Positions 11,969-51,655 of a stretch of 61,068 bases of DNA are shown here, one piece after another. Under the pieces are notes generated by a model that saw only the letters and a program-made list of their open reading frames with translations, was not told the origin of the DNA and ran no database searches. Numbering within the stretch: position 1 is the stretch's first letter; each line of letters starts with the position of its first letter. The position numbers were made by a program, and so were the translations under genes. Origin of the DNA: a virus (taxonomy: Duplodnaviria; Caudoviricetes); IMG/VR virus record IMGVR_UViG_3300019487_000034, positions 1 through 61,068 of that record; one strand, 5' to 3'.

Positions 11969-14221
11969 ATGTCGAACGTGCTGTCCTCAACTGATCAGCT
12001 TACTGTATATACCCAGCCAAAACCATTCACCATATTACAGCCCACCTCCTGCCCCCCACGGGGCATTGGTATTATCGTGGATCCCAGCTGCTGGGTCGAG
12101 GCTATTGATCGAGTACTGACAACTCGGGATGTGGTCGCAATCGACTTCGAGACACGGGGTACTGACCCCACTCTACCAGATAACTACATTGTGGGTATGG
12201 GTCTAGCTGGTTCCGACTTCAATTACTATCTCCACCGAATTGGTAATGAGGAACTGTTCGACCATATGTTGGAACACCTGATAGGGTCGGACGTGCGGTT
12301 CATTGCACATAACGTTTACTTCGATGGTCAATGGATATATGCTCGAAAGGGACCAGCTCCTGCCTTCCTGCAGTGGCATCTCAACTGGGAGTCCTGCACG
12401 TATGCCCTGTATCGTAAGCTTGCCACCGAGGGCTGGGTCGGACAGCGTTGGTCACTCAAGGATGCTATGACTGACTTGCTACTGTGGGAGTCAGCCAATG
12501 ATGATGGCATCAGTCAGTGGCTTGTGGCCAACGGTTATACGAATGGCTCGGGCAATGCATTGAAGGGCGAGATGTGGCGGTGTCCGCCGGAGATACTCGG
12601 TGAGTACTGCCTCCTAGATGCCGAGGCTACCTACCTCCTCTACACTCGGATCCTGCGGCCAGCGATGGAGCGATTCCCCGAGCTTCAACGATTCCACCAG
12701 CAGGATTTCCTCCATCTGATCCGGCGCCTGATAGAGCAGAAACTCCACGGTATCCTCGTGGATAGGGAGGGACTGATCGCTGCACGTGATGAGATCCTCA
12801 GTGAGTTGGGACCCATGGAGTGTTGGATCCGAGAGGAGTCTGATATCGCCGAGCCCATTCACCAGTGGGAAGAGAACAAACTTGCCGAGTATGACGAGCG
12901 GGAACCACCTCAATATCGTAAGCGGCCGAAGATGGGGGCCGAACCGGCCCAATTCAAGAAGGATGGGAATACCTCCAAGGTGTGGATCAAGTGGTGTGAG
13001 AAGCGTGATCGTCCTCCGGTGCGGTCTAAGGCATGGGAGAAGTGGGAGAATCGCCGACAGGAGATTCTGGGTGGTCTAGACGAAGCGTATAGGTTCAATC
13101 TCCGCTCCGGCGATCACCTCCGGTGGCTCTTCTTCGACGCACTGGGATTCGAGCCTACTGAGTTTACGAAGGGTGGGCAGCCCAAGTGCGACACCGACAC
13201 GATGCGACGATATGGTCCAGGAGGTGCGGCACTCGAGAAGTTCCACCTGCTCCATAAGGAGCTGGGATTCGTTACCGCTTACATTGAACTGACTGAGCAT
13301 CGAGATACGGTGCACCCCGGGTTCCGATCGCCCGGCACACTGACGGGTAGACTGTCCGGGACGGAACCGAATGTTCAGCAGGTCCCGAAGAGTCGGCGCT
13401 TCCTCCAATGTCTGCGTGCACGTCCGGGTCACGTCTGGATCGATGCCGACTTCACTGCACTCGAGCCTGTGGTAGCTACCGAGCTGAGCGGAGACCCGGA
13501 ACTCATGAAGGTATTCGGCCCGAACGCTCCGGCCGGGAGTGACATCTATCTGCACACGGGCGCAGGTCTCCCCCAATTCCGGGATCAGATTGTGGCTGCC
13601 GGGTACGATTCCGAGAACCTGACTGCTGAAGGGGCGGCCCATGCGAAGAAGGCAGTGAAGCCGCTGCGGGCTATCTGCAAGGTCCTGTACCTGTCATCAC
13701 AATATGGTGCCGGGCCCAACAAGATCTGGCGCACACTCACAGCGGACGGCGTGGACATCAGTCTCGAGCAGGTTCGTGAACTGCACGAGCAATACTGGGA
13801 GTACTATCAGGGGATCAAGAGCTGGGAGAAGCAGCTGAGAAAGGAACACCGGGAGAATCGTGGCTTCGTGATAAATGGTATCGGCCGTCCCATCGGTGTT
13901 CACGAGGATTCGGACCGCAAGTTCGACAAGCGGAAAGATATTGTCAATCGTGTGGTGCAATCTACTGGCCACGACATCCTGGTACAATATCTGTATGGCC
14001 TATGCCAGCTCTTGGATATCGAGGGGATACACTGGAAGCCGATTATTGTGGACTTCCATGATGAAGTTCTGGTAGAAGTACCAGAGGAGGAAGCGGAGGC
14101 AGCCATTGCCTGCTTCCGTAGGGCCCAGGATCAACTGAACGCCCAGCTGGGTGGGACAATCCCACTGAGGATTAACCCGGTGATAGTGAAGACATTGGCC
14201 GACGCAAAACTGGAAGATTAA
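11969..14221 (+). CDS. polA: Family A DNA polymerase with 3'-5' exonuclease
   Basis: Exo DFET, HNVYFD, YCLLD; TGRLS..PNVQQVP; motif A DADFTALE; motif B RAICKVLYLSSQYG; motif C FHDE. Confidence 0.95.
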   Translation: MSNVLSSTDQLTVYTQPKPFTILQPTSCPPRGIGIIVDPSCWVEAIDRVLTTRDVVAIDFETRGTDPTLPDNYIVGMGLAGSDFNYYLHRIGNEELFDHMLEHLIGSDVRFIAHNVYFDGQWIYARKGPAPAFLQWHLNWESCTYALYRKLATEGWVGQRWSLKDAMTDLLLWESANDDGISQWLVANGYTNGSGNALKGEMWRCPPEILGEYCLLDAEATYLLYTRILRPAMERFPELQRFHQQDFLHLIRRLIEQKLHGILVDREGLIAARDEILSELGPMECWIREESDIAEPIHQWEENKLAEYDEREPPQYRKRPKMGAEPAQFKKDGNTSKVWIKWCEKRDRPPVRSKAWEKWENRRQEILGGLDEAYRFNLRSGDHLRWLFFDALGFEPTEFTKGGQPKCDTDTMRRYGPGGAALEKFHLLHKELGFVTAYIELTEHRDTVHPGFRSPGTLTGRLSGTEPNVQQVPKSRRFLQCLRARPGHVWIDADFTALEPVVATELSGDPELMKVFGPNAPAGSDIYLHTGAGLPQFRDQIVAAGYDSENLTAEGAAHAKKAVKPLRAICKVLYLSSQYGAGPNKIWRTLTADGVDISLEQVRELHEQYWEYYQGIKSWEKQLRKEHRENRGFVINGIGRPIGVHEDSDRKFDKRKDIVNRVVQSTGHDILVQYLYGLCQLLDIEGIHWKPIIVDFHDEVLVEVPEEEAEAAIACFRRAQDQLNAQLGGTIPLRINPVIVKTLADAKLED

Positions 14222-14231
14222 TAGGCCCAAT

Positions 14232-14498
14232 ATGCGGATGCAAAGCTCGTGGAAATACCCTGGACTGTGGAGACACGTGGATAACACCACGGTGGCCATG
14301 GAGGTGACCAACTGTACCTGGGTCCCGGAGAAGGATTCCTGGAGTATGAGAGTGAGCTGGTATAACATTGGGCACTGTCATCTCCCGTGGCCTCTCGGCA
14401 TATCACAGCGAATCTGGATCCGCCGGGAACATGCAGGTAATTGGCAGCGTATGGGTGAGCAGGACTTCGGACCTGCCCCAATCCACAGGAGTCTCTGA
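14232..14498 (+). CDS. Hypothetical protein
   Basis: Operon packing. Confidence 0.6.
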   Translation: MRMQSSWKYPGLWRHVDNTTVAMEVTNCTWVPEKDSWSMRVSWYNIGHCHLPWPLGISQRIWIRREHAGNWQRMGEQDFGPAPIHRSL

Positions 14499-14926
14499 TG
14501 CACAAGAGGTTCGATCAGCAACTGTTCGACGATAATGACTCGGTCGCCAAGCGAACCGTGACGGAGTACCTCCTGTGTACCGAGGATGCAATAGTGGAGA
14601 ACTACCCGGATCCGTACCACGTGGACCTGTTGGTAACGGGTGGTCTCGGTAACAAGCGGGCCATTGAGTGCGAAGTGAAGAGAGTCTGGTCGGGTGCGGA
14701 CTTCCCATGGGACTCGGTCCAACTTCCCGAGAGGAAGCGGAAGTATCTGGACTGCGGTTATCCCGTGGAATACTGGCTGTTGAACAACGAGCTGAGCTAT
14801 GCTATTGTCATCCCCGGCGATGCACTGTTGAGGCATGAGCCGGTCGAGGTCAGTAATCGATACGTGCGGAAGGGCGAACGCTTCTACCAGATACCTCTGG
14901 TAGAATGCTCCATGAGGATATTATGA
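14498..14926 (+). CDS. Putative PD-(D/E)xK nuclease
   Basis: YHVDLL...IECEVK pattern; ERKRK. Confidence 0.55.
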   Translation: MHKRFDQQLFDDNDSVAKRTVTEYLLCTEDAIVENYPDPYHVDLLVTGGLGNKRAIECEVKRVWSGADFPWDSVQLPERKRKYLDCGYPVEYWLLNNELSYAIVIPGDALLRHEPVEVSNRYVRKGERFYQIPLVECSMRIL

Positions 14927-14957
14927 GTAGCACACTGCGTTTCAGTAGGAGAACCCC

Positions 14958-15518
14958 GTGAGCACAACACTACCGTCCAAGTCCTCCGCTGCCTACGCTG
15001 CGATCAGAGAGAACGTACTCCCCCTTACGAGGGGCATCGTATTGGTCGTGGATCCCAGCATCGGCAGCCAGTCCTCGCTACCCGGCTGGGCCGTCTACGG
15101 TGGCGGGGATTCACTTCTGGACTCTGGCGTGATCCCGATGGATGTCACTGAGTCACGGCCGTACAGGCTCCGTGCCGTGTACGATAAGCTCGAGAATCTG
15201 ACCACTGCCTGGCAGCCTCACGTCATAGTGTACGAGGAGGTCCCGGTCATGGCGCATGCAGGCCGTAGCCAGGTGTCCCACGCCTCACTGCTGAATGCGG
15301 TGGGTGTAACCCTAGCTGCCACTCATCTGCCCGGCGTGGGCTACGTGGGGATCCAGCCGATCGTGTGGAAGAAGAGGGTCTCTGCGGACTACGTGAAGGG
15401 TGACGAAGCGGATGCGATTGAGATGGGTCAGATTGTGATTGCCATGGCCCACGAGATATTACTGAAGGATCCTCCGAGGAAGTATCGTACGGCTAGGGAG
15501 GGGGGAGATGAAGCGTAA
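14958..15518 (+). CDS. RuvC-like Holliday junction resolvase
   Basis: VVDPS, IVYEE, PIVWKK, DEADAI acidic tetrad. Confidence 0.7.
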   Translation: MSTTLPSKSSAAYAAIRENVLPLTRGIVLVVDPSIGSQSSLPGWAVYGGGDSLLDSGVIPMDVTESRPYRLRAVYDKLENLTTAWQPHVIVYEEVPVMAHAGRSQVSHASLLNAVGVTLAATHLPGVGYVGIQPIVWKKRVSADYVKGDEADAIEMGQIVIAMAHEILLKDPPRKYRTAREGGDEA

Positions 15519-15855
15519 CCCACTGCCGGAAACAGTGAGTGTACTGGGCGTCCCCTTCCGGGTACTGATAGTGGATGAGGTGGATGACCAGGACTCCTCC
15601 GGGGAAACATGTGGGGAGCATCGGCACATCAAGATCGCCTCCTCCCAGGATACACGCAGACGCTGGACCACGTTTGCCCTGCATGAGTACCTACATGCGG
15701 CTCTTGTAATCAATGGGGTCCATTCGGTCCTCGGCGAGGAACTCGAGGAGGTGATAGTGCAATCCCTAGAGCATGCACTCGAGCAACTATTACTGACCCA
15801 CGGCAAGCAACTCCTGGCAGCATTGGCTGTACAGAAGGAGGATATAAATGATTGA
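15508..15855 (+). CDS. HExxH metallopeptidase-like protein
   Basis: LHEYLHA followed by EEVIV. Confidence 0.7.
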   Translation: MKRNPLPETVSVLGVPFRVLIVDEVDDQDSSGETCGEHRHIKIASSQDTRRRWTTFALHEYLHAALVINGVHSVLGEELEEVIVQSLEHALEQLLLTHGKQLLAALAVQKEDIND

Positions 15856-16267
15856 ACTAGTGACTAGGATTCATCTATTCGACAGAACATATCAACAGCG
15901 AATCAATACCATCGAGGTGAATCAGCAGATGGAACTCCCGGATTGGATGGTTGACGACCGTATGCCACAAGTATACGCTCCCTATTTTGAACTCAAGGGG
16001 AGAACGGTCAGTCCTGGTGGAACCGAGGCGCAGTATGCGCACAACTCAGCTCCACCTATTGTTGTTGCTACAAGGTTAACATACCTACTGAAGCTGTCCG
16101 TTCCAGGATCTGGTTTAGAGCTAGTTCATGTCGGGATTCCGTGGGGAGATTTGCCCGGGTTATCAATGAGTACCGAGGAGCCCGAGTGCGCCTGCGATAT
16201 CCGGGCACTGATGTCATCAGGCCATAACAGTGGCTGTCAGTACCTACAGTGGAAGAGGAGCAAGTGA
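15848..16267 (+). CDS. Hypothetical protein
   Basis: AGGAGG RBS; C-terminal CAC...GH..GC. Confidence 0.65.
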   Translation: MIELVTRIHLFDRTYQQRINTIEVNQQMELPDWMVDDRMPQVYAPYFELKGRTVSPGGTEAQYAHNSAPPIVVATRLTYLLKLSVPGSGLELVHVGIPWGDLPGLSMSTEEPECACDIRALMSSGHNSGCQYLQWKRSK

Positions 16268-16515
16268 GTTACCGATATGTATCCAGCATCATCTGTCCCC
16301 ACTGTGCCGATAGGGTCTGGTCCCGGTATGGTCACGACATGAGGTACTGCTTCTGTCAATACTGCTTCATCGATGGGGGACGGGCCTATACTCGGGTGGG
16401 TTATGGGGGTACCGATTGGCCCGAACCCTGGACCCCTCCAGTATTATCGAAGATGCGTGTACCAACGGCCGAACTGGCTCCGTATCAGAGGGTGACGAGC
16501 AGATGGCCCTACTAG
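16264..16515 (+). CDS. Zn-binding hypothetical protein
   Basis: CPHC...HD...CFC...IDGG. Confidence 0.7.
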   Translation: MSYRYVSSIICPHCADRVWSRYGHDMRYCFCQYCFIDGGRAYTRVGYGGTDWPEPWTPPVLSKMRVPTAELAPYQRVTSRWPY

Positions 16516-16787
16516 CTTATCTTGGAAGGTCCAACGCTGTCATAATTATCCTGTTACTATCGGCATGTGCAACCCCATACCGCTACTCGGATACTCGGTA
16601 CCCCGGGTGTGAGTTGGTTCAACCGCTAATGGTGGATATGACCGGGTTGGGCTGGGATGATACCATATCCCGTACCACTATTGACCGGGCACGACACGTG
16701 TGCTACTATCGGTATCGAGGTTGCCTGTCGAAGATAACCCGCACAATGGAGTACTCCTTCCGGGTACTCTGCAGACGAACGAAGTGA
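16503..16787 (+). CDS. Putative lipoprotein
   Basis: Hydrophobic stretch plus lipobox LSAC. Confidence 0.55.
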   Translation: MALLAYLGRSNAVIIILLLSACATPYRYSDTRYPGCELVQPLMVDMTGLGWDDTISRTTIDRARHVCYYRYRGCLSKITRTMEYSFRVLCRRTK

Positions 16788-16793
16788 GTCTGC
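16750..16793 (+). repeat. Two-hairpin element copy A (variant first loop)
   Basis: Hairpin then GCAGAC-GAACGAAGTGA-GTCTGC. Confidence 0.6.
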
Positions 16794-16807
16794 TAGGAGG
16801 AGCCAGT

Positions 16808-17029
16808 ATGTTTCGCATAGGCAACATAGTGATCAGTGTACTACTGTGGACCGGAATCGTGATCCTGACCAGTTGCATGATGACTGACCCCAGTCAATGG
16901 CGCCCCGAGCAGCACATGATGATGAGTCGCAACTGCCGGATCGTGTGTAAGCCCGGGCAGGTTCTCCGATATGACTCAACTGATGGTTCATGTGATTGCC
17001 AGCCGAGTCAACCTAGACCACGCAAGTAA
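16808..17029 (+). CDS. Putative Cys-rich lipoprotein
   Basis: Signal plus lipobox LTSC; AGGAGG RBS. Confidence 0.6.
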   Translation: MFRIGNIVISVLLWTGIVILTSCMMTDPSQWRPEQHMMMSRNCRIVCKPGQVLRYDSTDGSCDCQPSQPRPRK

Positions 17030-17067
17030 TAGCTGGGGTCACGGCTCGTGCGATTGTCAACCAACCG

Positions 17068-17101
17068 GTCGTCGTCGAGACGACTAGCGAACGGAGTGAG
17101 C
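17068..17101 (+). repeat. Two-hairpin element copy B
   Basis: GTCGTC-GTCGA-GACGAC ta GC-GAACGGAGTGA-GC. Confidence 0.75.
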
Positions 17102-17102
17102 A

Positions 17103-17663
17103 ATGGGTCACAGAAACAGAGAGATTGAACTGAAGATGCTCGTGCCGGGAACCTACACTCACATCTGCGAGGAACTGGACAGGATACTCTCAGACGAGAA
17201 ACCGCAGATACGGACTGGTAGTTCCCTTGACACCTACTGGACCATTCATGATGGGCGTGCAGAAGCACAGTTCCTCCGGGTCCGTGAGCGTGACGGGATC
17301 CGGCAGATCACCGCCAAGGGCAAGGACCGGGGTACCAACGTCAACCGCATTGAGGTTGACATTGATTCCACCAGTGAGACCCATCGGATTCACCGCCTAC
17401 TCCGGTGTGTCCTGGGGAAGCCCGCCGGTGTAGTGCAGAAGGTGTACAAGGTGTGGGAGCTAGAGTCCGAATATGACACCGTATGCGCCTACGAGGTATT
17501 GGAACCAGAGAATAAGCTGGGCATGGTTATCGAAGTTGAGGCACGTACCGAGGAGCGCATGCGGGAACTTGAAATGCTAGTACGGGGGGCCATCCCCGGA
17601 GTGCAGACTGCACCGGGTAGTCTATATGAGTTGTTGATCGCCAAGAGTGTACCAATCAAATGA
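17103..17663 (+). CDS. CYTH-domain protein (triphosphate tunnel metalloenzyme / class IV cyclase-like)
   Basis: EIELK, DTYW, LRVR, ITAKG, RIE, IEVE motifs. Confidence 0.8.
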   Translation: MGHRNREIELKMLVPGTYTHICEELDRILSDEKPQIRTGSSLDTYWTIHDGRAEAQFLRVRERDGIRQITAKGKDRGTNVNRIEVDIDSTSETHRIHRLLRCVLGKPAGVVQKVYKVWELESEYDTVCAYEVLEPENKLGMVIEVEARTEERMRELEMLVRGAIPGVQTAPGSLYELLIAKSVPIK

Positions 17664-17675
17664 AGGAGTGAGGAG

Positions 17676-17930
17676 ATGCCCACTGTAACAATCAAGTTCA
17701 CCCTACCCGAGGAACGGGACGAGTACGAGATGGCTAACCGAGCCATGGCCATGGCCATTGCTATTGAGCAGATTGGCAATGAGGTGTTCCGACCCGCCCG
17801 GAAGCACGGTTACCCGGAGCAGGAACTGGCTTCTCTCCTCGAGAAGTGTGGGGATGCAGGCCCGGAATTGGTATCTGCTCTGGAACAGAAGTACTATGAG
17901 ATTCTACGTGAGAATAATGCCGTGGGCTAA
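17676..17930 (+). CDS. Hypothetical phage protein
   Basis: KFTLPEE motif; GAGGAG RBS. Confidence 0.7.
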   Translation: MPTVTIKFTLPEERDEYEMANRAMAMAIAIEQIGNEVFRPARKHGYPEQELASLLEKCGDAGPELVSALEQKYYEILRENNAVG

Positions 17931-17946
17931 CAGGCGAGGAATAGCT

Positions 17947-18153
17947 ATGCCGATGTATACCTGGAAGGATACACGAACTGGAGTCGAAACCGAGGTGGTT
18001 CGCAGTTTCGACGAGTGGGAGCGGCCACCCGAGCGGGACGAGGTTCTGACCCTGAGTGATTCGCAATTCGAGAAGGCCGAATGGGAACGTGTCATCGGTG
18101 CACCAGGTGTTGTCAAGGGTGCGAGATGGGGCGGCGGGAAGGGCCACTGGTAG
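17947..18153 (+). CDS. FmdB-like ribbon protein (Cys-less)
   Basis: MPMYTWKD..TG...E...S...ERVIGAP. Confidence 0.5.
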   Translation: MPMYTWKDTRTGVETEVVRSFDEWERPPERDEVLTLSDSQFEKAEWERVIGAPGVVKGARWGGGKGHW

Positions 18154-18207
18154 CAGTGGGTAACTAATCGTGGCCTGCGCCCGTATAACGGACGAGGGGT
18201 ATTGGTA

Positions 18208-18408
18208 ATGTCAGACTTCAAATGTCCACAGTGTCAACATCCGCAGACTTGTCCATGTCCCTCCTGTCAATTGACGAACCCCACGGAGAAGCCCTGGATA
18301 TGTGACGGGGATTTCATATCCTGCGGGAACTGTGGCCTCAAGAGACATTGTGACTGGTGGTTAGATAGAGAATGGGAGTATTATGAATCTGTTGGGAAAC
18401 AAACGTAA
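18208..18408 (+). CDS. Cys-rich Zn-finger protein
   Basis: CPQC, CPCPSC, CGNC. Confidence 0.65.
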   Translation: MSDFKCPQCQHPQTCPCPSCQLTNPTEKPWICDGDFISCGNCGLKRHCDWWLDREWEYYESVGKQT

Positions 18409-18652
18409 GCGCACTAACACGTTCACGATCCGAGCATCGGATGGTGCGATCGGTGGTCGACTCAAACGTAATGGCGATCTAGATCTCAGCATCGACGGTC
18501 ACCTCTTCGCCACTATCCCAGGTAACCTCATCCCCGCATTGGCACACTGGCTGTCCTCTGTTAATGGGAGATTTGCTGATGTCCTCGATTCGAAACTACA
18601 AGCCAATGCTGCGATCATTCCCCTATCCTCAGGCAAGAGCCGGACAGAGTGA
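18383..18652 (+). CDS. Hypothetical protein
   Basis: GGGAG RBS. Confidence 0.55.
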   Translation: MNLLGNKRKRTNTFTIRASDGAIGGRLKRNGDLDLSIDGHLFATIPGNLIPALAHWLSSVNGRFADVLDSKLQANAAIIPLSSGKSRTE

Positions 18653-20036
18653 ACTCCTCAGAACCCTGGAGCGACTCTGGAATCAGTTCGACGTATTCAT
18701 AATTTGTGCGCCCACGGCCTTCGGGAAGAGTGCCGTATCCCGGACAATTCAGGAGTGGGCCTACTCGGCCTCACTCATTACTCCGACTAATCTACTGGTC
18801 AATCAGTTTCTCACGGAGTTCCCCGAATGTCCCACACTCCACAGACTGGACTCCTACTCTTGCGAGGAGTGGCAAACCAACTGTGCTGAACATCGTGGAA
18901 AGGCTGGAGGATTCTGTCGTGGATGTCCCGCTGCGGCTGACCTAGCCAGAGCCAAGTATCGTCGGGGTCCCGGAATGTACAATTATCACATATATCTAGC
19001 CCATAAGCTCCAACGTCCCACTCTCATTGTGGATGAGGCGCACAATCTAGTTCCCACGCTACAAGACCTGCTCTCCGGTCGTATCTGGATTCACGACTAC
19101 CCGGAGTTGAGTGCGCCACCAGGTACCTCCCATTCAGAGATTCTCCATAGATTGGATAAACTTCCTCCCCATAAGAGGAAACATGTTAAGATTCAGTTAT
19201 TACATGAAGCACTGACCTCGAAGATTCCACACTATGTGATTCAGTACACGACGGATTCATTCAACGGGAAGGGCACGAAGCGTGGAGAACCGGAGGATCG
19301 ACCCTGCATTAAGCTCTACCCAGTAGATATTGGGGATTCATTCGATCTATTCACCAGGGGTGAAACGCAGAAGGTAATACTGATGTCTGCTACCATCGGT
19401 CCCGTCGATGTTACTGAGTTGGGGTTGCAGCGCAAGCGTGTGTGCTACCTCCAGGCGGCTCACCCGATCGCCCCCGATCGCCGTCCCGTACAGTTACTGT
19501 CAATTGAGGACTTGAACCATGAGAATCTTGAGGCTAGTGGCCCTCGATTAGCAGAAGAGATAATCAATATTGCTAACTACCATGCAGGGGAGAAGGGTGT
19601 AATTCACTGCACATATCAACTATCTACCATGTTATCGGAGCATCTAACAGATGTACGATACATCTTCCACGATCGTGAAAACAAGCGAGAACAATACCAG
19701 AAATTCAGAGACCTGGCACCAGAGAGTGGCGCAGTATTGGTTGCCAGTGGTATGTATGAGGGTATTGACCTACCTGACGATCTCGGTAGATGGCAGGTAA
19801 TCGCCAAGGTTCCCTGGCTTAGTCTGGCTGATCCTGCCATTAGATACAAGGCGGATCGGGAACCTGATTATTACAGATGGAGCACCCTGAAGCACCTGAT
19901 CCAGGCCTGTGGACGCATCTGCAGACACGAGGAAGATTATGGAGTTACGTACGTTTTAGATGGAAGCGTGAACCGCCTGTTAGCAGGAAGTGCTCACCTC
20001 TTACCTTCATGGTTCAGTGATGCAATTGTCGAATAG
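18579..20036 (+). CDS. DinG/XPD-like SF2 helicase
   Basis: APTAFGKS, four-Cys cluster, DEAH, MSAT, EGIDL, QACGRICRHEEDYG. Confidence 0.88.
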   Translation: MSSIRNYKPMLRSFPYPQARAGQSELLRTLERLWNQFDVFIICAPTAFGKSAVSRTIQEWAYSASLITPTNLLVNQFLTEFPECPTLHRLDSYSCEEWQTNCAEHRGKAGGFCRGCPAAADLARAKYRRGPGMYNYHIYLAHKLQRPTLIVDEAHNLVPTLQDLLSGRIWIHDYPELSAPPGTSHSEILHRLDKLPPHKRKHVKIQLLHEALTSKIPHYVIQYTTDSFNGKGTKRGEPEDRPCIKLYPVDIGDSFDLFTRGETQKVILMSATIGPVDVTELGLQRKRVCYLQAAHPIAPDRRPVQLLSIEDLNHENLEASGPRLAEEIINIANYHAGEKGVIHCTYQLSTMLSEHLTDVRYIFHDRENKREQYQKFRDLAPESGAVLVASGMYEGIDLPDDLGRWQVIAKVPWLSLADPAIRYKADREPDYYRWSTLKHLIQACGRICRHEEDYGVTYVLDGSVNRLLAGSAHLLPSWFSDAIVE

Positions 20037-20068
20037 ATCGGGAGGGTTCGCCAGCATCCAAAACGATC

Positions 20069-20098
20069 TTGACGGATCTGTCGAACGTCTGATAGATT
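20069..20098 (+). promoter_or_regulatory. Sigma70-type promoter
   Basis: TTGACG-N18-TAGATT with extended TG; followed by a multi-hairpin leader. Confidence 0.5.
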
Positions 20099-20181
20099 CA
20101 TCTCACCATCTCATTCCGGGATGGTTTGCCGAGGCAATCAATGCGGGATGATGAGCCGCTACTGACAAGGGGAACTCTTCT

Positions 20182-20688
20182 ATGCCTTCTTGGAATATCA
20201 TTACTGCTGGTACCGGGTGGGGTACTGGTGACGCTGATTGCCCTGTTATGTCAGAAACTCCACTATTGGTGGACCACCCGATTGTGAATACTGGTACCCA
20301 GGTGAATGCCACTACGGCAACTATTCAGCAGGCACTGACCGCAGGTCCAGCACTTAAGTTTGATACTGCTAAGGTGAGGCTCGAGCTTCTCTCTGTACCC
20401 GCTATGGAGGCTATTGCCGAAGTGATGACCTTCGGTGCCCGCAAGTATGCAGCTCACAACTGGCGCAAGGGATTCGAGTGGTCTCGCCTATTCGGTGCAC
20501 TACTCCGGCACACGTTCGCCGCAATGAGGGGCGAGGACCGAGACCCGGAGTCCGGTCTCCTCCATCTGGCTCATGCCGGTTGCTGTGTCATGTTCCTATT
20601 GGAGCATGTCCTCTGCAAGCTGGGTACGGATGACCGGTATAAGTCGATTGTCGTCGAGACAATCCCGAACGAAGTGAGGGGGAAGTGA
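20182..20688 (+). CDS. DUF5664 dATP/dGTP diphosphohydrolase-like protein
   Basis: KFDTAK, FGARKYAAHNWRKG, ALLRH, DPESGLLHLAHA. Confidence 0.85.
   Translation: MPSWNIITAGTGWGTGDADCPVMSETPLLVDHPIVNTGTQVNATTATIQQALTAGPALKFDTAKVRLELLSVPAMEAIAEVMTFGARKYAAHNWRKGFEWSRLFGALLRHTFAAMRGEDRDPESGLLHLAHAGCCVMFLLEHVLCKLGTDDRYKSIVVETIPNEVRGK
20646..20680 (+). repeat. Two-hairpin element copy C
   Basis: GATTGTC-GTCGA-GACAATC then CC-GAACGAAGTGA-GG, inside the 3' end of a CDS. Confidence 0.75.
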
Positions 20689-21032
20689 ACCTCATCAGTA
20701 TTGACATTCAATGCGGAGTCTGCGAACATGTTTTCGACGATCTGGTCCAACGTCCTCCGGCGGATTTCGGGATTCCTGCGTATGTCTGCACCGCCTGCGG
20801 CTCCGAGGCGTATCGTATTCCTTCTGCGCCGAGGGTACTCCGAGCCTCTCATCCCGATGGATACTCCCGAGGACCCGGATACCAGTCAATGAAGGAAGCT
20901 GCAAAGCTCAGGGCCGCACGTGCCAACCTACCGAACACGGATGCTGCTCGGGCAGATATTAATTCTGAGATTCGGAAGGTGGAGAAGGCAGCCGGTCGTG
21001 GCTATGTGAAGAAAGAGAAGGGACAGAAATGA
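20685..21032 (+). CDS. FmdB-like Zn-ribbon protein
   Basis: CGVCEHVF...CTACGS...RIPSAP. Confidence 0.7.
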   Translation: MNLISIDIQCGVCEHVFDDLVQRPPADFGIPAYVCTACGSEAYRIPSAPRVLRASHPDGYSRGPGYQSMKEAAKLRAARANLPNTDAARADINSEIRKVEKAAGRGYVKKEKGQK

Positions 21033-21274
21033 ATAATGTCAAGCAGGCACTACTCGAGTTAGTCAATTTACAGAAGCAGCGAATCGTTCAGCTGGAGAGC
21101 CAGGTACGCCACATGGCCCGGGATCTATGTCACACTCAAGACCCCACCTACTATTCTGCATTTGCTTCTGAGATCGGAGATGTGATACGTATTAGGGGAG
21201 AGGACTGGAAACTCCTCAGTAAGAATCGCAATGAGTGTACTATCACATTGAAACTGATCGAGTCTAAACAGTAA
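21029..21274 (+). CDS. Hypothetical protein
   Basis: ATGA overlap. Confidence 0.6.
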   Translation: MNNVKQALLELVNLQKQRIVQLESQVRHMARDLCHTQDPTYYSAFASEIGDVIRIRGEDWKLLSKNRNECTITLKLIESKQ

Positions 21275-21278
21275 CAGT

Positions 21279-21316
21279 GCTCGCCGTCGAGGCGAGTCCC
21301 AGCGAACGGAGTGAGC
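21279..21316 (+). repeat. Two-hairpin element copy D
   Basis: GCTCGCC-GTCGA-GGCGAGT ccca GC-GAACGGAGTGA-GC. Confidence 0.75.
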
Positions 21317-21319
21317 GGT

Positions 21320-21595
21320 ATGAATGATGGATACCTTGCTAGACTGAAGCTTGTGGAACAACAGATCACTGTGATGCGCTCCGATATGAACAAGGCGCTC
21401 AATGAGGTCATGGACACAATAACCAAGATGATGACCGCCCATCGCATGTTCCAGATCTACATCGATGAGAACCTGAGGGAACTTCGGGATAAGGCAGGAC
21501 TCTCAGGTTCGCTTCTCACAGATGGTCTCGCCTCGACCGAGGATACGTCATCGATGGCGCCCTCGACGGGCGATGTCGGAGGCAAGGAGTTATGA
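21320..21595 (+). CDS. Coiled-coil hypothetical protein
   Basis: ATG after GGAGTGAG. Confidence 0.6.
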   Translation: MNDGYLARLKLVEQQITVMRSDMNKALNEVMDTITKMMTAHRMFQIYIDENLRELRDKAGLSGSLLTDGLASTEDTSSMAPSTGDVGGKEL

Positions 21596-22128
21596 TCCCC
21601 GAATTTGGTCGGGTCATGATTGGCTGGTATATCCTGTTCCTCCTCCTACTTGTCACCACTGGCTGTGGCTATGATGAGTGGAGAGAGACCGACTGTTACG
21701 ATGGCTGTGAACCCCCGGAGGAATATCCAGATGACCAAGATAGCGAAACCCGCAGTGTTACTGTGGTCGGACCTGCAGGGCCTACGGGTCCGACTGGACC
21801 GAGTGGTAAAAGGGGGCGGACCGGGGATCCAGGAGTTGCTGGCAAACCTGGACGAGATGGAACTGATGGTGCTCCGGGGACAGCTGGTGCAGATGGTCAG
21901 CCAGGTCCAGTGGGTACTCCAGGCGCACAGGGCGAGGAAGGGCCCGTAGGGCCGACTGGTGAGGAAGGGCCGGTGGGGGATACGGGGCCACAGGGCGAGG
22001 AGGGTGGTAGCTGCACTACGTATTACATCAATGGAAATCAGGACTGCGGTGTGGTGATCGAGTGCGAGGATGGAACACTGACAGAGATTCCCGGTAAGAA
22101 GTATAATAGGCCAATCTGTGCACACTGA
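21592..22128 (+). CDS. Collagen-like (Gly-X-Y) putative lipoprotein
   Basis: Hydrophobic N-terminus with TTGC; more than 25 contiguous GXY triplets; Cys-rich C-terminus. Confidence 0.8.
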   Translation: MIPEFGRVMIGWYILFLLLLVTTGCGYDEWRETDCYDGCEPPEEYPDDQDSETRSVTVVGPAGPTGPTGPSGKRGRTGDPGVAGKPGRDGTDGAPGTAGADGQPGPVGTPGAQGEEGPVGPTGEEGPVGDTGPQGEEGGSCTTYYINGNQDCGVVIECEDGTLTEIPGKKYNRPICAH

Positions 22129-22144
22129 CCAACGAGGAGATAAC

Positions 22145-22354
22145 ATGTTCATTCAACTAACAGATACCGATGGTACTCAGCTTTGGGTCAATGTAGAACA
22201 TGTCACCGCTTTCTTTCGACACGACAGTAATAAGGGAACGGAGCTGAAATGTCTCTCAGATAGAATGGTAATCGCAACAGAAGATCCATATACAGTACTG
22301 GCTCGCATTCGAGAACAAGAGAATCAGCGGGCCCGGGACTATACCAGAGGCTAG
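22145..22354 (+). CDS. Hypothetical protein (FlbD-like pattern)
   Basis: MFIQLT...WVNVEHV...ATEDP..V...I; GAGGAG RBS. Confidence 0.55.
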   Translation: MFIQLTDTDGTQLWVNVEHVTAFFRHDSNKGTELKCLSDRMVIATEDPYTVLARIREQENQRARDYTRG

Positions 22355-22364
22355 TGAGGTCAGT

Positions 22365-23051
22365 ATGAACTGGAATGAACTTCTAGGCGAGGATTGGTGG
22401 TGGCATGCTGCTATTCTGGCAAATAAACTTGCTGGACAACCAAGTAAACCACGAACGGATGTATACCCCGAACGACTCAACGTGTTCGCCGCATTCGATG
22501 AGGTTGAACCCAATGATGTCCGAGTAATTATTCTCGGCCAAGATCCCTATCACAGCGTGGGAAAAGCCCGGGGCGTAGCATTCGGATATCACCCGGGCTA
22601 CACGGGATCTGTTAACAGTTCATTGGCTAACATCATTCTAGAAGCGGGAGGGGACCCTACTCACTTCGACAAGACACTCCGTAACTGGACCCAACAGGGA
22701 GTCCTGCTACTCAACACCCGGTTAACTGTTCCCCATGAGCAGCCCATGGGCCACGCAGGACTGGGCTGGGAAGAGATGGTATCAGAGGCTCTCGAGGTAG
22801 TCGTCAAGCGGGGCCAACCCCCAATACTGGCCTGGGGTGCCGAAGCCCGTAAGATGGCAGCACGAACGTCCGCATGGACAGTTATTGACACGAGCCACCC
22901 TTGCAGGTATAGTGCTTCCAGGGGGAACAAGCCGTTCCTCGGTAGCAATTGCTTCGAACGAGTGAATGAGGCCCTAGTGGCACAGGGTGACGAACCGATT
23001 AACTGGGCCTGTTCTGGACCCTCGGGGGTCGGAGGTATTAATAACACATGA
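22365..23051 (+). CDS. ung: Uracil-DNA glycosylase, family 1
   Basis: ILGQDPYH, GVAF, SLANI, QGVLLLNTRLTV, GWE, AWG, SHP. Confidence 0.9.
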   Translation: MNWNELLGEDWWWHAAILANKLAGQPSKPRTDVYPERLNVFAAFDEVEPNDVRVIILGQDPYHSVGKARGVAFGYHPGYTGSVNSSLANIILEAGGDPTHFDKTLRNWTQQGVLLLNTRLTVPHEQPMGHAGLGWEEMVSEALEVVVKRGQPPILAWGAEARKMAARTSAWTVIDTSHPCRYSASRGNKPFLGSNCFERVNEALVAQGDEPINWACSGPSGVGGINNT

Positions 23052-23119
23052 GTGACTTCCAGGTGTACATGGTCTGCATTACAGTTATGCTGGGAATATT
23101 CTTCTGGGGGATTAAATAA
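23048..23119 (+). CDS. Very small membrane peptide (23 aa)
   Basis: MSDFQVYMVCITVMLGIFFWGIK; GGAGG upstream; ATGA overlap. Confidence 0.4.
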   Translation: MSDFQVYMVCITVMLGIFFWGIK

Positions 23120-23153
23120 TGGCAAACCCAACTACGGAATGTGGAGAAGTAAC

Positions 23154-23567
23154 ATGGCAGACGTAACATTCCTGAACCTGCTGCGGGGCAATCGCATCTC
23201 CGGGTTCCTCCGGCTGAAGATGTCCCCCGGTGTCGCATACCGCATGGCCACCGACTACACGTATGCCGAAGTGGCCCTGAACAATGTTCAGAACATGGAG
23301 GGCGAGAACCTGGCCATGTCAGCGGAGTTGAAGATCCAACGAAACCAGCAGGTGGAACTGGTAGCCCCGTGCAGCCTGCAGCCTATTGCGGGCCACAAGG
23401 CACTCATAGTCGCCAATCCCGCACTGTTCCGGTACGCCTCGGTACCGCCGATGCTTCTCGTGGATTCACTACAGCAACCGGCTGAGGTAGTGATCCCGGC
23501 GAAGTTCCACCGTGACATGGCAATATCGGAATTAGACTGGCTCTGCAGGATATACTTGATTAACTGA
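23154..23567 (+). CDS. Hypothetical beta-rich protein
   Basis: GGAG RBS before ATG 23154. Confidence 0.65.
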   Translation: MADVTFLNLLRGNRISGFLRLKMSPGVAYRMATDYTYAEVALNNVQNMEGENLAMSAELKIQRNQQVELVAPCSLQPIAGHKALIVANPALFRYASVPPMLLVDSLQQPAEVVIPAKFHRDMAISELDWLCRIYLIN

Positions 23568-23580
23568 ATTGGAGTTGAGT

Positions 23581-23790
23581 ATGGAACTAGACATTCAGAA
23601 GCTTGCTGAGGATCTGATTGCCCGGACCCAGCGGCAATCCCGAGTCTATGGGGAACAGTCGGATAGGCTGAAGTGGGTAGCCGAGGGTATGCGGGAACTG
23701 CATGAGGCTATTCGCCGAGCAGCAGCCCAGTTGGCCACCGAGGAGTTTGCAGATAAACTAGTACCCAGTGGAGATGGCGATGCCGACTGA
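23581..23790 (+). CDS. Hypothetical protein
   Basis: GGAG RBS. Confidence 0.6.
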   Translation: MELDIQKLAEDLIARTQRQSRVYGEQSDRLKWVAEGMRELHEAIRRAAAQLATEEFADKLVPSGDGDAD

Positions 23791-24031
23791 GGACAGGCCC
23801 AATGTCTTCGCAATCCAGGCGAAGAGGACTCAGTCCAATCTGCGGGTGCGGAGGGGAATGTTATCCCCCGAGGAAAGGATAGCGGAACTGGAAGCGGACG
23901 TGGATAAGCTTATAACTACACTCCTCCAGCAGCAGAAGCAACTGGAGGAGATGGAGGATCGTCAGTGGAAGTTACTGAGGCTCATCGGGAAGAGGCTGGG
24001 GATTTCCGCTTCGAAGAGGCGGGCCGAGTAA
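23780..24031 (+). CDS. Coiled-coil hypothetical protein (last gene of + arm)
   Basis: Heptad pattern; overlaps convergent gene. Confidence 0.6.
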   Translation: MPTEDRPNVFAIQAKRTQSNLRVRRGMLSPEERIAELEADVDKLITTLLQQQKQLEEMEDRQWKLLRLIGKRLGISASKRRAE

Positions 24032-24350
24032 ACTTCCGTCTACGTTCGAACTCTTCCGGCGACAGCGGCACCATGCCCTCCGAGGACATACCCGTAGGTC
24101 CCGGGCGCATCCCGCCACTCGATGCCCCATAGGCAGCCGCAGACACAGGATTCATATTTGCTCGATTCAGCAAACGTTGCTCCTCACGAGACTGAGTCTG
24201 CTCCTCGAAATTCTCCTGCCGCTCCTGTTCCTCGGGAGGTAGCTCCTCTCCTGTCCACTTATCTGAATACCGAGTGTTCGGCATCCCCTCCGCCCTGAGG
24301 CGGTCGAGAACGGATAAAGTCTGTTTGCGTTTCTGTGTTTCCGTGGGCAT
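23982..24350 (-). CDS. Hypothetical protein (last gene of - arm)
   Basis: MPTETQKRK start follows upstream stop. Confidence 0.6.
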   Translation of the reverse strand: MPTETQKRKQTLSVLDRLRAEGMPNTRYSDKWTGEELPPEEQERQENFEEQTQSREEQRLLNRANMNPVSAAAYGASSGGMRPGPTGMSSEGMVPLSPEEFERRRKFTRPASSKRKSPASSR

Positions 24351-24351
24351 G

Positions 24352-24480
24352 TTATTTCTTCCCCTTACCTGCCTCATTATAGGCTATAGCAGCCGCCTGC
24401 TTCTTCGGATATCCCTTGGCAATCAGGTGACCAATGTTGGACCCGATAGCCTCATCCGATTTCCCTTTACGTAATGGCAT
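24352..24480 (-). CDS. Small basic phage protein (42 aa)
   Basis: MPLRKGKSDEAIGSNIGHLIAKGYPKKQAAAIAYNEAGKGKK resembles a recurrent MPLKKG..QAxAIA phage microprotein. Confidence 0.7.
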   Translation of the reverse strand: MPLRKGKSDEAIGSNIGHLIAKGYPKKQAAAIAYNEAGKGKK

Positions 24481-24481
24481 A

Positions 24482-24655
24482 TCAATATCCCTCACGTTTC
24501 GGCGGTGGCGCCGAACGCTTGCGAAGCTTATCTATTCCCGAAGAGATCTTCGAAGCGAAACTGGACTCCTCTCCATCCTCCTCTTCCCTCTCCTCGGGTT
24601 TCTTCCTGAATGCCTTGCGCATCGCATCGGCTTGCTTACTATACTGATCTGCCAT
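24482..24655 (-). CDS. Small charged protein (57 aa)
   Basis: AGGAG RBS; MADQYSKQADAMRKAF... Confidence 0.6.
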   Translation of the reverse strand: MADQYSKQADAMRKAFRKKPEEREEEDGEESSFASKISSGIDKLRKRSAPPPKREGY

Positions 24656-24707
24656 TTCAGAAATCTCCTATTATATTTCTACCGATATTCTAGATCCCGA
24701 AGCGGGA

Positions 24708-25157
24708 TTAGAAGTCTACACGCACAGCTAACAGTGCAGCTCTATTGCCGAAATCGTACCCACCGCCTGCCCACAGGTTCGTGTCACCAACCCGGTGGTA
24801 CAATACTCCAGACCAATTGATTCTGGGTCGTATTGATTGATCAGACCAACTCTCCGGTTTGACGGCTGCTATTGCCTCGGCCGACCACTTCGGTCTCACT
24901 ACTGGCGTGGGCTTACTCGTGTTGGTATTGGTATCGGCAGTAGTCTCCGTGGTGACTTCCTCAACCGTACCATCCGGACGCTTGATCACCGTGACCGTAC
25001 GGGTTACTACCCGTTCCACGGTTATCGTATTGGTCACGGGAGGAGGAGGAGCCGGAGGCATTGGGCGGAATAGTGTATTTGCTTGCCAGCCGCCCCATCC
25101 TCCCAGACTGAGGATGAGTAGCACCACATAGGTTCTCCAATTAGCCAGCAGAGTCAT
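24708..25157 (-). CDS. Membrane-anchored spanin-like protein with C-terminal beta strands
   Basis: N-terminal TM, Pro/Thr-rich linker, amphipathic strands ending AVRVDF; follows holin-like gene. Confidence 0.5.
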   Translation of the reverse strand: MTLLANWRTYVVLLILSLGGWGGWQANTLFRPMPPAPPPPVTNTITVERVVTRTVTVIKRPDGTVEEVTTETTADTNTNTSKPTPVVRPKWSAEAIAAVKPESWSDQSIRPRINWSGVLYHRVGDTNLWAGGGYDFGNRAALLAVRVDF

Positions 25158-25366
25158 TACGCTTCCTCCTTGGGGGGTCGAGCTGACAATACCGCTTGTG
25201 CCGCATTTGCCCCGGCAACTGAAGTGACAATGAGGCTGATTGCCCCTGCCGTCTCCACGCCAGTCATTGCCGTTATTGCCACACAGCAACCCATGCCGAC
25301 CAGTGCAATCACCGAACGACGACACGTTACCACCTTATTGAACCCTGACCTAATTGAATTAGTCAC
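25157..25366 (-). CDS. Putative holin
   Basis: Small, two hydrophobic segments, charged C-terminus. Confidence 0.5.
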   Translation of the reverse strand: MTNSIRSGFNKVVTCRRSVIALVGMGCCVAITAMTGVETAGAISLIVTSVAGANAAQAVLSARPPKEEA

Positions 25367-28300: not shown

Positions 28301-28760
28301 GGGCACGCTCCATTGCGGGCTCCTGGGAAAGCTTGTAGAGTTTCTGTGGGATCCCGAGGCCGAAGACCTGACCAACTCCACCTACGGCTCGCTTCACTTC
28401 GGGTTCGGAGATGGGAGCACTTCCAGCCATACGAGCACCGAAGTAGGGGGCTATTTCCTCCAGCTGCTGCGGATTCACTCCATGTTTACGAGCTATATCA
28501 GCGATTTCATTGGAGGTCATTTCCTCGGCACCGAGAACGGGCTTATCGAAGAAGGAACGATCTTCCAGTTCCTTTTCGAAACCCGCCGGAGGAGGAGCGA
28601 ACAGATCCGGCCCCTCGGCTGGAGGAGGCGGAGCGAATAATGACTCGTCACTAGTCGCCCCACCGCCACCAGGTTGGGGGGTTTCACCCAGCTGAGGCTG
28701 GGCCCGATTCATCTCATCCTGGGTAGGAGGAGCGAATAGATCTACGGAATTATCTACCAT
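25359..28760 (-). CDS. Large internal virion / DNA ejection protein
   Basis: 1133 aa, helical Ala/Gly-rich, N-terminal DLFAPP repeats, last of ejection-type cluster. Confidence 0.6.
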   Translation of the reverse strand: MVDNSVDLFAPPTQDEMNRAQPQLGETPQPGGGGATSDESLFAPPPPAEGPDLFAPPPAGFEKELEDRSFFDKPVLGAEEMTSNEIADIARKHGVNPQQLEEIAPYFGARMAGSAPISEPEVKRAVGGVGQVFGLGIPQKLYKLSQEPAMERALDDLQQLAAGRSSYLQLAGEVATPIGGVAKTAGLGTKLAAGAGLGAAGGFGASRQGEELSTAAFGAGLGAGAGGVIAGVQRVLSGRAARVGRVATPGASEEAVDRVSARGGAALEEGVRDAVEQRTPADDLIIQHIFGDTPELTPEQSRVIARAYSPRTVADLADPRTEVGAEFIERLRRAVPEIERPGIVEAANREVAETTIRNATDDFARDVFKRSIAQSDDPRAMLRQWAGMGEASGQGQQYAEGRLRELLNARTAEEYVRSRGIAQGEAPSFLQRSFDWLSDSQYVLRGMDEKWRGLGAEAAHKEINRGVNRMSFPREDMRQQISRIFRDNKRSGVDAEALQAGDIIRKVEAGEALTGPEQRAFAGFRDFFEEGIDRVRKLAEEEGIPPLAIKSRPNYVPAQLRDTSELRELISTRINSIQRDAEVITGRRYRDIAEVPPDVFNSLINSNAEHSSTLKFMHTLSGETGNTPSEISRMWKSTFLNPEGRQKLETVARAALEREDLIPLWARETNLYKLADKWTTNTLRHLYLRKGIDRMRNVSSMLHNLGADSQAQYVDRLISDLMGTRKGTAAEYFTRSQDAFHTALDRRIRDAGSDWQRTALRTVKMMPTFLQDLSKQIYPNLLGALNPRTLIMNLTQTFTKTLPEFGGPYGSLLFMRGAARVGGVRKLPAYMRRMEAMGLAPRRFMGGSLDYLDEGLARTDAAQLLKRGTRAMAEVGMKPYEWAESVNRSVAFGASEMMANDLNKGSKLAETALMRFPSSVRSAVERARDAGDVGGMVREIATHIVNSTQYQYNRASMSEYGRTMGPLFSAFSKWPTATLGQVVEGYRSKGALGGSARLAEQLVAPWVLLETADALMGQYSDEGLTDRQKKLFSSQGISQAAPIGTLKGVVTGDFFTPPVIDTALKLFAEPSRAADSEQAISRMQKAAENGVYMFAPGGLGGWIRFVTDDLVTLATGERPEGSTTLERAGITGD

Positions 28761-51625: not shown

Positions 51626-51655
51626 TAACTCAGTTATGGACCAATATATTGATCA

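Follow-up and report, generated by a model that had tools for sequence, protein, structure and literature searches.

The window analysed here is the whole of virus record IMGVR_UViG_3300019487_000034 (Duplodnaviria; Caudoviricetes), a linear sequence of 61,068 bases, rated 100% complete, from an uncultured phage. In this genome, an element of about 40 bases, made up of two small hairpins (H1 and H2), precedes the start codons of a few early genes. Three of its copies, B, C, and D, share a common layout, in which a stem closes the loop C-GTCGA-G and is followed, after a gap of 0–5 nucleotides (nt), by a second hairpin of the form NN-GAACGRAGTGA-N'N', with the conserved 11-mer starting at 17089, 20667, and 21304, respectively. 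Copy A carries a variant first hairpin, and all four copies, A–D, are located on the sense (+) strand. The evidence comes from a single genome with three to four informative copies of the element. These copies, together with two more distant matches to the 11-mer (E and F) and one gene adjoining copy D, are as follows.

16748–16770, + strand: copy A, variant first hairpin, GGAGTACTC / loop CTTCC / GGGTACTCT, forming nine pairs as RNA, two of them G.U.
16771–16793, + strand: copy A, H2, GCAGAC - GAACGAAGTGA - GTCTGC, with a six-pair stem; 13.8 bits, for the H2 part of the covariance model only.
17067–17085, + strand: copy B, H1, G-GTCGTC (17068–17073) / GTCGA (17074–17078) / GACGAC (17079–17084)-T, with a G.U outer pair.
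17087–17101, + strand: copy B, H2, GC - GAACGGAGTGA - GC; 60 bits for the whole element, followed by ATG 17103 (gene 17103–17663).
20646–20664, + strand: copy C, H1, GATTGTC (20646–20652) / GTCGA (20653–20657) / GACAATC (20658–20664).
20665–20679, + strand: copy C, H2, CC - GAACGAAGTGA - GG; 51.4 bits for the element, followed by GTG 20685 (gene 20685–21032).
21029–21274, + strand: 81-amino acid (aa) gene between the Zn-ribbon gene and copy D.
21279–21297, + strand: copy D, H1, G-CTCGCC (21280–21285) / GTCGA (21286–21290) / GGCGAG (21291–21296)-T, with a G.U outer pair.
21299–21318, + strand: copy D, H2, CC-A-GC - GAACGGAGTGA - GC-GG, four pairs with an A bulge; 55.8 bits for the element, followed by ATG 21320 (gene 21320–21595).
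6361–6371, − strand: copy E, the exact 11-mer alone, lacking stems on either side and lying antisense in codons 9–12 of the ClpP-like gene 6336–7112.
30881–30891, − strand: copy F, GAACGAAGTAA, with one mismatch; the TAA inside it is the stop of gene 30881–31735, and the ATG of gene 30074–30877 lies 3 nt further.

The coordinates and sequences of the hairpins agree with those in the preliminary description of the locus, which had recognised three copies with the invariant C-GTCGA-G loop enclosed by different perfect stems and a fourth copy that keeps the second hairpin. Copy A does keep H2, and in addition it has an upstream hairpin of its own, with the loop CTTCC; the minimum-free-energy RNA fold of the region 16745–16795 has a z of −4.2. 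The TGA of the 11-mer in copy A is the stop codon of the open reading frame (ORF) 16503–16787, and a separate Shine–Dalgarno (SD) sequence, AGGAGG, is found at 16795–16800, upstream of the ATG at 16808. In copy C, H2 runs into the SD-like sequence GAGGGGG. The heptamer GATTGTC, identical to the 5' arm of H1 in copy C, is also present at 17052–17058, 9 nt upstream of H1 in copy B.

Copies E and F lie away from this region. Copy E is identical to copy B at 16 of 18 nt, counted over the motif and the following xCAATG, that is, the start-codon context, and only a five-codon ORF follows it. An unrelated eight-pair hairpin is located directly upstream of copy F, which may be a degenerate copy of the element, one-mismatch matches being by themselves at the level expected by chance.

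A covariance model, R1, built from copies B, C, and D and run over the window with filters off, recovers only B, D, C, and the H2 of A; the next best hit, at 40464–40496 (− strand, 17.3 bits), is coding sequence without a convincing fold. A k-mer census and a BLAST comparison of the window with itself yielded nothing useful. The exact 11-mer GAACGRAGTGA is found five times in the window, against a mean of 0.11 in 100 shuffles, none of which reaches five (0.055, with a maximum of one, in 200 other shuffles), so that the copy number is above chance. Three GTCGA loops are flanked by at least six perfect pairs, against a mean of 0.04 (maximum of one in 200 shuffles). Neither the 11-mer at up to two mismatches (33 against 29.2) nor CGTCGAG alone (16 against 10.1) is enriched, which indicates that the signal resides in the exact, composite element. 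A further GTCGA-loop hairpin, CGCCC / GTCGA / GGGCG, with five pairs and without the 11-mer, is located on the − strand at 21558–21572, inside gene 21320–21595; about 0.17 such hairpins are expected by chance.

The alignment of copies B, C, and D leaves all 33 of its stem cells paired, with four of the 11 pairs changed on both sides (three in H1 and one in the outer stem of H2). Structures slid along the same alignment pair 23–42% of the cells, and three of 500 shuffles reach the observed score. Variation among the three copies affects three of the seven H1 pairs and only one of the 11 motif bases, the purine R, and leaves the five loop bases and the two closing bases unchanged. Such a combination of invariant loops with changing, yet complementary, stems is the pattern expected when a fold is under selection and its loops are read.

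The position of the element with respect to the downstream genes is equally regular. The 11-mer contains the SD core and resembles the canonical extended SD (…GGAGGUGA). Measured from its end, the start codon is 3 nt away in copy B (ATG 17103), 5 nt in D (ATG 21320), 7 nt in C (GTG 20685), and 20 nt in A (ATG 16808); the preliminary description, which had placed the copies within about 15 nt of a start, was accurate for B, C, and D, whereas A lies beyond that limit. Four of the five exact copies are sense-oriented and found at these distances before an annotated start, which by our own arithmetic has a chance of about 1% for random sites. In copies B and D, where R is G, the sequence GGAG lies 6 and 8 nt before the ATG and constitutes the sole SD, whereas A and C, where R is A (GAAG), each have an extra SD (AGGAGG and GAGGGGG, respectively). 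R is also A in copy F, where the presence of the upstream stop codon inside the motif would allow translational coupling. The outer stem of H2 comprises two pairs in B, four with a bulged A in D, and six in A. It is therefore weakest where the motif must act as the SD and strongest where a separate SD is present, which fits a logic of accessibility. Several other phage genes use TAACGGAGG as a ribosome-binding site, and the starts at 2240, 2864, 11969, 18202, and 39362 (− strand) share the ribosome-binding context TAACGGAG(G), which overlaps the 5' part of the 11-mer (AACGGAG).

Two copies extend into the ends of upstream reading frames. Copy C falls in the final 14 codons of gene 20182–20688, which encodes the dATP/dGTP pyrophosphohydrolase, and copy A within the last codons of ORF 16503–16787, a putative gene with a weak coding score and with no homologue among 5.8 billion proteins; the notion that two copies persist inside coding 3' ends is thus secure for C and uncertain for A. 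Copies A and C overlap these ORFs in different reading frames. Protein coding does not explain why the same nucleotides are conserved in two frames, and selection would thus act on the nucleic acid; together with the invariant loops and covarying stems, this supports the original view of the element as a selected structural signal. The products of two small neighbouring ORFs in the region 16503–17029 resemble lipoproteins, both having a signal peptide as well as a lipobox (LSAC and LTSC). These ORFs, 16503 and 16808, do not form a paralogous pair, and neither do genes 21029 and 21320.

RNA folding predicts the same two-hairpin topology in all four copies, including a 2x2 internal loop of G.A pairs, while the prediction for the opposite strand lacks H2 in B, C, and D. 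In B and D the outermost pair of H1 is G.U, and the first hairpin of A contains two such pairs; all of them would become A.C mismatches on the other strand. Together with the tandem G.A pairs, they restrict the fold to the + strand. When DNA parameters are used, the inner helix of H2 is not predicted in any copy, although these parameters do not model GNA mini-hairpins. Strand specificity, the locking to start codons, the SD logic, and the missing features of N4 promoters and mini-hairpins (discussed below) together favour a transcribed RNA element. The spacer between the helicase and pyrophosphohydrolase genes (20073–20125) contains two adjacent hairpins of its own (z −2.2). GUCGAACG lies in the loop region of the first, and the second ends in CUC-AUUCC-GGG, an apex similar to that of the first hairpin of copy A (CUC-CUUCC-GGG), above a different, yet complementary, lower stem. 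The CTCNTTCCGGG apex, common to the first hairpin of A and the hairpin at 20105–20125, was considered as a motif and rejected, since the pattern was chosen post hoc and, in spite of three exact occurrences, only seven are found at up to one mismatch against 5.1 expected.

Relatives of the phage were sought through its DinG/Rad3-type helicase. Among 8000 scored candidates, 416 homologues were found at E<=0.001, often on contigs of 57–62 kilobases (kb), the closest being 66–71% identical. The loci in which the element was searched for were found with a profile of 36 helicase sequences, a search of viral contigs with the single helicase having given no close relative; they number 91, with helicase identity of up to 58% (seven viral, 80 metagenome out of 98 found, and four genome loci). 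Allowing one mismatch, the 11-mer has 26 matches in 732,114 bases (87 loci), which is the chance level. The pattern CGTCGAG-N6-16-GAACGRAGTGA has 45 loci in IMG/VR, close to the number estimated by chance, none of them with more than four pairs around the loop. One exact GAACGAAGTGA is present at 8842 on the sense strand of locus L092 (39% helicase identity), in the region 8826–8866, within a 68-nt spacer and flanked by the five-pair stem GCATA/TATGC. It lies 30 nt ahead of a start codon equipped with a separate SD, it folds weakly (z +0.1 to +1.4), and a single exact match equals the chance expectation.

Comparison of the homologous junctions shows how the gene order around the element differs in these relatives. 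A homologue of the pyrophosphohydrolase is present in 24 of the 91 loci, of gene 20685 in 23, of gene 21320 in four, and of gene 16808–17029 in one (L064). A plain GAGGAG site precedes the homologue of gene 17103 in L071, the nearest relative that could be read, and an AT-rich spacer precedes that of gene 16808 in L064. In L058, the pyrophosphohydrolase gene directly abuts the Zn-ribbon gene, whereas at the same junction, where the window has copy C, L071 (2866–3510) carries an insert of some 650 nt with short repeats of the GGTCAGGTC type and small ORFs. The part of the pyrophosphohydrolase gene covered by copy C encodes a C-terminal tail of 14 residues, seen in none of 13 homologues compared (top scorers and those on contigs equal in length to the closest helicase contigs, drawn from the 120 listed of 1043 matches). 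In both L071 and L058, the Zn-ribbon gene is joined to the homologue of gene 21320 by an ATGA overlap, and gene 21029–21274 is absent from that junction; this gene and copy D therefore constitute an insertion relative to both relatives. As far as the sequences compared indicate, the element is lineage-specific and located at plastic junctions. The likely source DNA run contains the source contig and one unrelated 38-nt piece, with no joints.

What the sequence shows is a set of repeats more numerous than expected by chance, with covarying stems, a fold specific to one strand, a regular placement before start codons, and an SD logic. These results form the basis of the reading that we prefer, namely that the element is a transcribed, structured translation-start operator with loops read by a trans-acting factor. 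We give it a probability of roughly 45%. We infer that the element is active as RNA rather than as DNA, that it is bound by a factor, and that binding regulates translation, either by repression or by activation. The element would be transcribed within rightward early or middle mRNAs and act at the level of RNA. H1 would consist of 7–9 pairs below a loop of 5 nt that a C-G pair closes; in H2, an outer stem of 2–6 pairs would be followed by the tandem G.A pairs and then by A-U and C-G, up to a G-R-A triloop, and the 11-mer within H2 would supply the SD core 3–7 nt before the start codon. Since GUCGA and GAACGRAGUGA stay constant and the stems can vary, a reader would have to recognise the loops. 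It would most likely be a phage-encoded RNA-binding protein, or otherwise the 30S subunit itself, and it would adjust the translation of all the downstream cistrons jointly, in the manner of a translational operator. Of the three roles suggested initially (a priming site, a gene-cassette recombination site, or a shared translational operator), the last one fits best, considering that the copies A–D occupy the sense strand only, lie 3–7 nt before starts in B, C, and D, and contain an SD.

Several observations weigh against this reading. Copy E is antisense, with no real gene start beside it, and the genes downstream of copies A–D have no obvious functional link, encoding, respectively, a lipoprotein-like protein, a 186-aa protein of no known family, a Zn-ribbon protein, and a 91-aa protein without a confident family match. 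The structural support comes from three or four sequences of one genome; the inner segment of H2 (GA/AC/GRA/GT/GA) shows no variation, so that covariation says nothing about its pairing, and the energies predicted for B, C, and D do not surpass those of shuffled sequences (z −0.2 to −0.9). A candidate RNA-binding protein was not found, a Pfam search at E<=1 with 14 small neighbouring proteins returning only sub-threshold zinc-ribbon hints, and among sequencing runs only the likely source DNA run, and no RNA run, was found to contain the window sequence. The element is also absent from all 91 relative loci, with no R1 match above 12 bits in 783,084 bases, and the homologous junctions in L071, L058, and L064 lack it as well, so the downstream genes evidently work without it in these relatives. 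Absence from relatives had been named at the outset as an outcome that would speak against a selected signal. Such absence is indeed what was found; however, it does not provide a fair test, because only distant relatives, with helicase identity of up to 58%, could be read.

The plastic junctions raise the possibility that the element is instead a cassette boundary or a mobile regulatory module, a unit of about 40 nt that travels with accessory genes or inserts beside them, supplying a hairpin and a ribosome-binding site as well as direct-repeat homology for shuffling, in a way comparable to moron junctions or to the PeSL modules of T4-type phages. Such a role, which is compatible with a regulatory one, had also been suggested initially, and it finds partial support in the insertion of gene 21029–21274 with copy D relative to L071 and L058. 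Copy C, in turn, replaces the normal short C terminus of the pyrophosphohydrolase at a junction that is direct in L058 and occupied by a different insert of about 650 nt in L071, while A and B flank the rare gene 16808–17029, which has a homologue in one of the 91 loci. The lineage specificity of the element and the copy of the 5' arm of C (GATTGTC) found 9 nt before H1 of B also count in favour, and the PeSL modules offer a precedent (PMC2839356). However, the unit has no promoter, as a sigma-70 scan of 14000–25000 gave seven sites against 8.3 expected, none of them overlapping an element, and it has neither a T-run terminator nor target-site duplications or terminal repeats. Recent copy-and-paste events would predict identical stems, yet three of seven pairs differ, and the shared identity extends over only about 20 nt. 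Moreover, genes 20685 (23 loci) and 21320 (four loci) downstream and the pyrophosphohydrolase gene upstream (24 loci) are conserved rather than accessory, and no cassette-less variant was found among the contigs of the source sample. On balance we consider a cassette-boundary role unlikely, although it is the most credible of the competing explanations. A bolder variant, a self-propagating "portable start site", envisages a module read through its loops (GUCGA and GRA) by a dedicated factor that inserts itself at junctions, overwrites the upstream 3' end, and brings its own SD, with the reverse copy at 6361–6371 serving as an antisense switch between mRNAs. Because that copy is on the − strand, the + strand mRNA of the ClpP-like gene (6336–6400) contains 18 nt complementary to the region around the start of gene 17103 (16 Watson–Crick and two G.U pairs), which could represent an antisense interaction or a fossil. 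A duplex-energy scan of this anti-motif was not discriminating, many windows scoring alike, and we regard the portable start site as improbable.

A different function in RNA would predict many of the same features. The sense-strand, intercistronic placement and the conserved loops are equally expected of a site of processing or stability control by an endoribonuclease, or of an antitermination or pause signal of the nut/put kind with H1 as a boxB-like pentaloop for a small basic protein. T4 RegB cuts GGAG in early SDs, and boxB pentaloops start with G and end with A, like the loop of H1; the hairpin pairs in the neighbouring spacer 20073–20125 also suggest a structured early mRNA. On the other hand, nut and put occur as one site per operon, a pattern unlike three or four start-codon-locked sites within 4.5 kb, and R = A in four of the six copies removes GGAG. 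No N-like or RegB-like protein was found among the window proteins, nor were intrinsic terminators that would need suppression found nearby (five terminator-like sites against 6.7 expected). We regard these functions as less likely than a cassette boundary. Less probable again is a site in duplex DNA for a phage DNA-binding protein, stoperator-like, in which the asymmetric 11-mer would be bound in order to block or tune transcription, with the inverted repeat H1 as a second protein site. The exact 11-mer is also found reversed with the same boundaries, in copy E, as a duplex site would predict, and in the text of Pope et al. DNA-binding proteins were preferred as an explanation of the ESAS inverted repeats, with SAS contrasted with the L5 stoperators (PMC3203893). 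This explanation accounts neither for three different, always self-complementary arms around an invariant non-palindromic centre nor for the link between the R position and the extra SD; G.U (G.T) pairs and strand-specific G.A and GRA features are meaningless in duplex DNA, and no repressor or integrase was detected. The lowest probability among the named readings goes to a signal in single-stranded DNA, either an N4-like hairpin promoter or a site of priming or single-strand initiation built on G-N-A mini-hairpins. C-GRA-G triloops with sheared G.A pairs form the core both of the early promoters of N4 and of the G4/ssiA hairpins used in priming (PMC13037366, PMC4496689), and virion-block proteins of 1735, 1133, and 929 aa without a detectable family leave room for a hidden virion RNA polymerase (vRNAP). 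However, with the GRA loop on the coding strand, transcription of the N4 type would run antisense into the upstream gene; the elements are located at 27–35% of the record (16.7–21.3 kb of 61 kb), and a fixed distance of 3–7 nt to the start codon is unexpected for priming sites. The closing pairs are A-T and C-G, rather than the two G-C pairs stated to be essential (PMC13037366), and the H2 inner helix is not predicted with DNA parameters. The initial suggestion of a priming site or N4-like promoter is accordingly weakened. The remaining probability is that none of these readings applies.

Beyond the element, genes of the record are oriented rightward up to about 24.8 kb and leftward beyond that point. 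The rightward block includes a GP88-family protein, a DUF932 protein, an SLT transglycosylase, the ClpP-like protease, and an HNH endonuclease, as well as a family-A DNA polymerase, a RuvC-like protein, the DinG/Rad3-type helicase, the dATP/dGTP pyrophosphohydrolase, and a UDG-like protein. The leftward block carries the large terminase, a portal protein of the P22/SU10 type, a peptidase M15, and large proteins without a family; three of these, 1133, 1735, and 929 aa long (25359–28760, 34155–39362, and 42359–45148, all on the − strand), matched nothing in Pfam, PHROGs, or PDB sequences. Neither a repressor nor an integrase was found among the window proteins, the window contains no tRNA genes, and Rfam 15 gives no match at the gathering score across it, the lone sub-threshold match within 16500–21500 being unrelated to the element. 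No close phage is present among 50,697 phage records, in which the best polymerase identity is about 26% and the sole DNA match is a stray 43 nt. Long C homopolymer runs are present at both ends of the record (several of C10–C15 in 1–90 and a C23 in 61004–61050); they may be real C-rich termini or artefacts of poly-G read-through at the physical ends of a linear genome. A near-perfect palindrome of 39 nt (87% identity) is located at 51612–51650, between the peptidase M15 and portal genes.

Several known systems share one or more features with the element. In the MS2 and PP7 coat-protein hairpins and the RegA and gp32 sites of T4, a small hairpin at the ribosome-binding site has loop bases that are read by a protein in order to set translation. 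These operators are single or unstructured AU-rich sites, whereas the element described here is a two-hairpin module repeated before several unrelated genes. The nut site of lambda (boxA plus boxB) and the put site of HK022 combine a short hairpin with a G...A pentaloop and a conserved linear block in the nascent early transcript, put being composed of two hairpins. In comparison, the order of hairpin and linear block is reversed in the element, its copy number and start-codon locking do not fit, and an N-like protein was not found. Regulatory cassettes of the PeSL kind in T4-type phages were reportedly the subject of work by Comeau and colleagues in 2014 (PMC4122927).

The resemblance to the hairpin promoters of the N4 vRNAP is found in H2. 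In both cases, stem positions are divided into conserved and variable ones, and a 3-nt G-R-A loop with a sheared G.A pair is closed by C-G (PMC4496689). In the N4 promoters, however, the loop G(-10) R(-11) A(-12) is on the template strand, whereas here GRA is on the coding strand of all adjacent genes; the N4 stem has 5–7 base pairs (bp), compared to a 2-bp inner helix, tandem G.A pairs, and 2–6 outer pairs; and the three N4 sites are at the left end of the genome, rather than in its middle (PMC4496689). No homologue of the vRNAP was detected in Pfam, PHROGs, or PDB sequences, which is an absence of detection only. The extra-stable DNA mini-hairpin d(GCGNAGC) needs two terminal G-C pairs closing the GNA loop (PMC13037366). 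The core of the element, A-C-GRA-G-T, has an A-T pair in place of one of them.

The PeSL modules described by Arbiol et al. (2010, PMC2839356) are likewise small, dispersed intergenic stem-loops located beside small accessory genes, associated with indels and acting as direct repeats. In comparison with distant relatives only, copy D coincides with an indel breakpoint, and copy C is located at a variable junction. PeSL, however, consists of a sigma-70-like early promoter and a terminator, whereas the element has no promoter hexamers or T-run, H1 is not among the five terminator-like sites, and, unlike PeSL, it is locked to start codons and contains an SD (PMC2839356). If the element does mark cassette boundaries, it would be a second example, outside the T4-type phages, of small regulatory modules that shape gene shuffling.

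The closest known analogue, of which the element is not a member, is provided by the SAS and ESAS elements of the Cluster K mycobacteriophages (Pope et al. 2011, PMC3203893), with which it was compared through the descriptions in the text of that paper only. In both cases a short, asymmetric, conserved motif with an SD core (13 bp in SAS, 11 here) is found 3–7 bp before starts, almost always in one orientation and concentrated among the non-structural genes that fill half of the genome; some copies enclose the stop codon of the upstream gene, an inverted repeat precedes about half of the SAS copies, a single reverse copy is located away from a gene start, and the motif is absent from other phages (PMC3203893). 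If the logic of a portable start applied, it could also explain the lone reverse copy of SAS in each subcluster K1 genome. The differences are equally clear. The sequences are unrelated (the SAS consensus is GGGATAGGAGCCC, and the hosts are mycobacteria), and each genome has 11–19 copies compared to 4–6 here; SAS is conserved across three subclusters, whereas the element is absent from the 91 relative loci and homologous junctions, all with helicase identity of up to 58% (PMC3203893). The ESAS arms are 17 bp long with a conserved consensus, departures from which are described without pairing support, and a DNA-binding protein was proposed for them, whereas here the arms of 6–7 bp are variable and covarying, and it is the loop that is conserved (PMC3203893). 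As described there, no function was assigned to SAS, a role in translation being suspected (PMC3203893). Start-associated phage repeats have thus been known since 2011 with no mechanism assigned, and the same placement is now observed in an unrelated, uncultured phage. What is new with respect to SAS and ESAS is the presence of clear compensatory changes in the stems next to invariant loops, which suggests that a factor reads one strand in its folded form, and which makes the element a compact, mutable target of about 40 nt.

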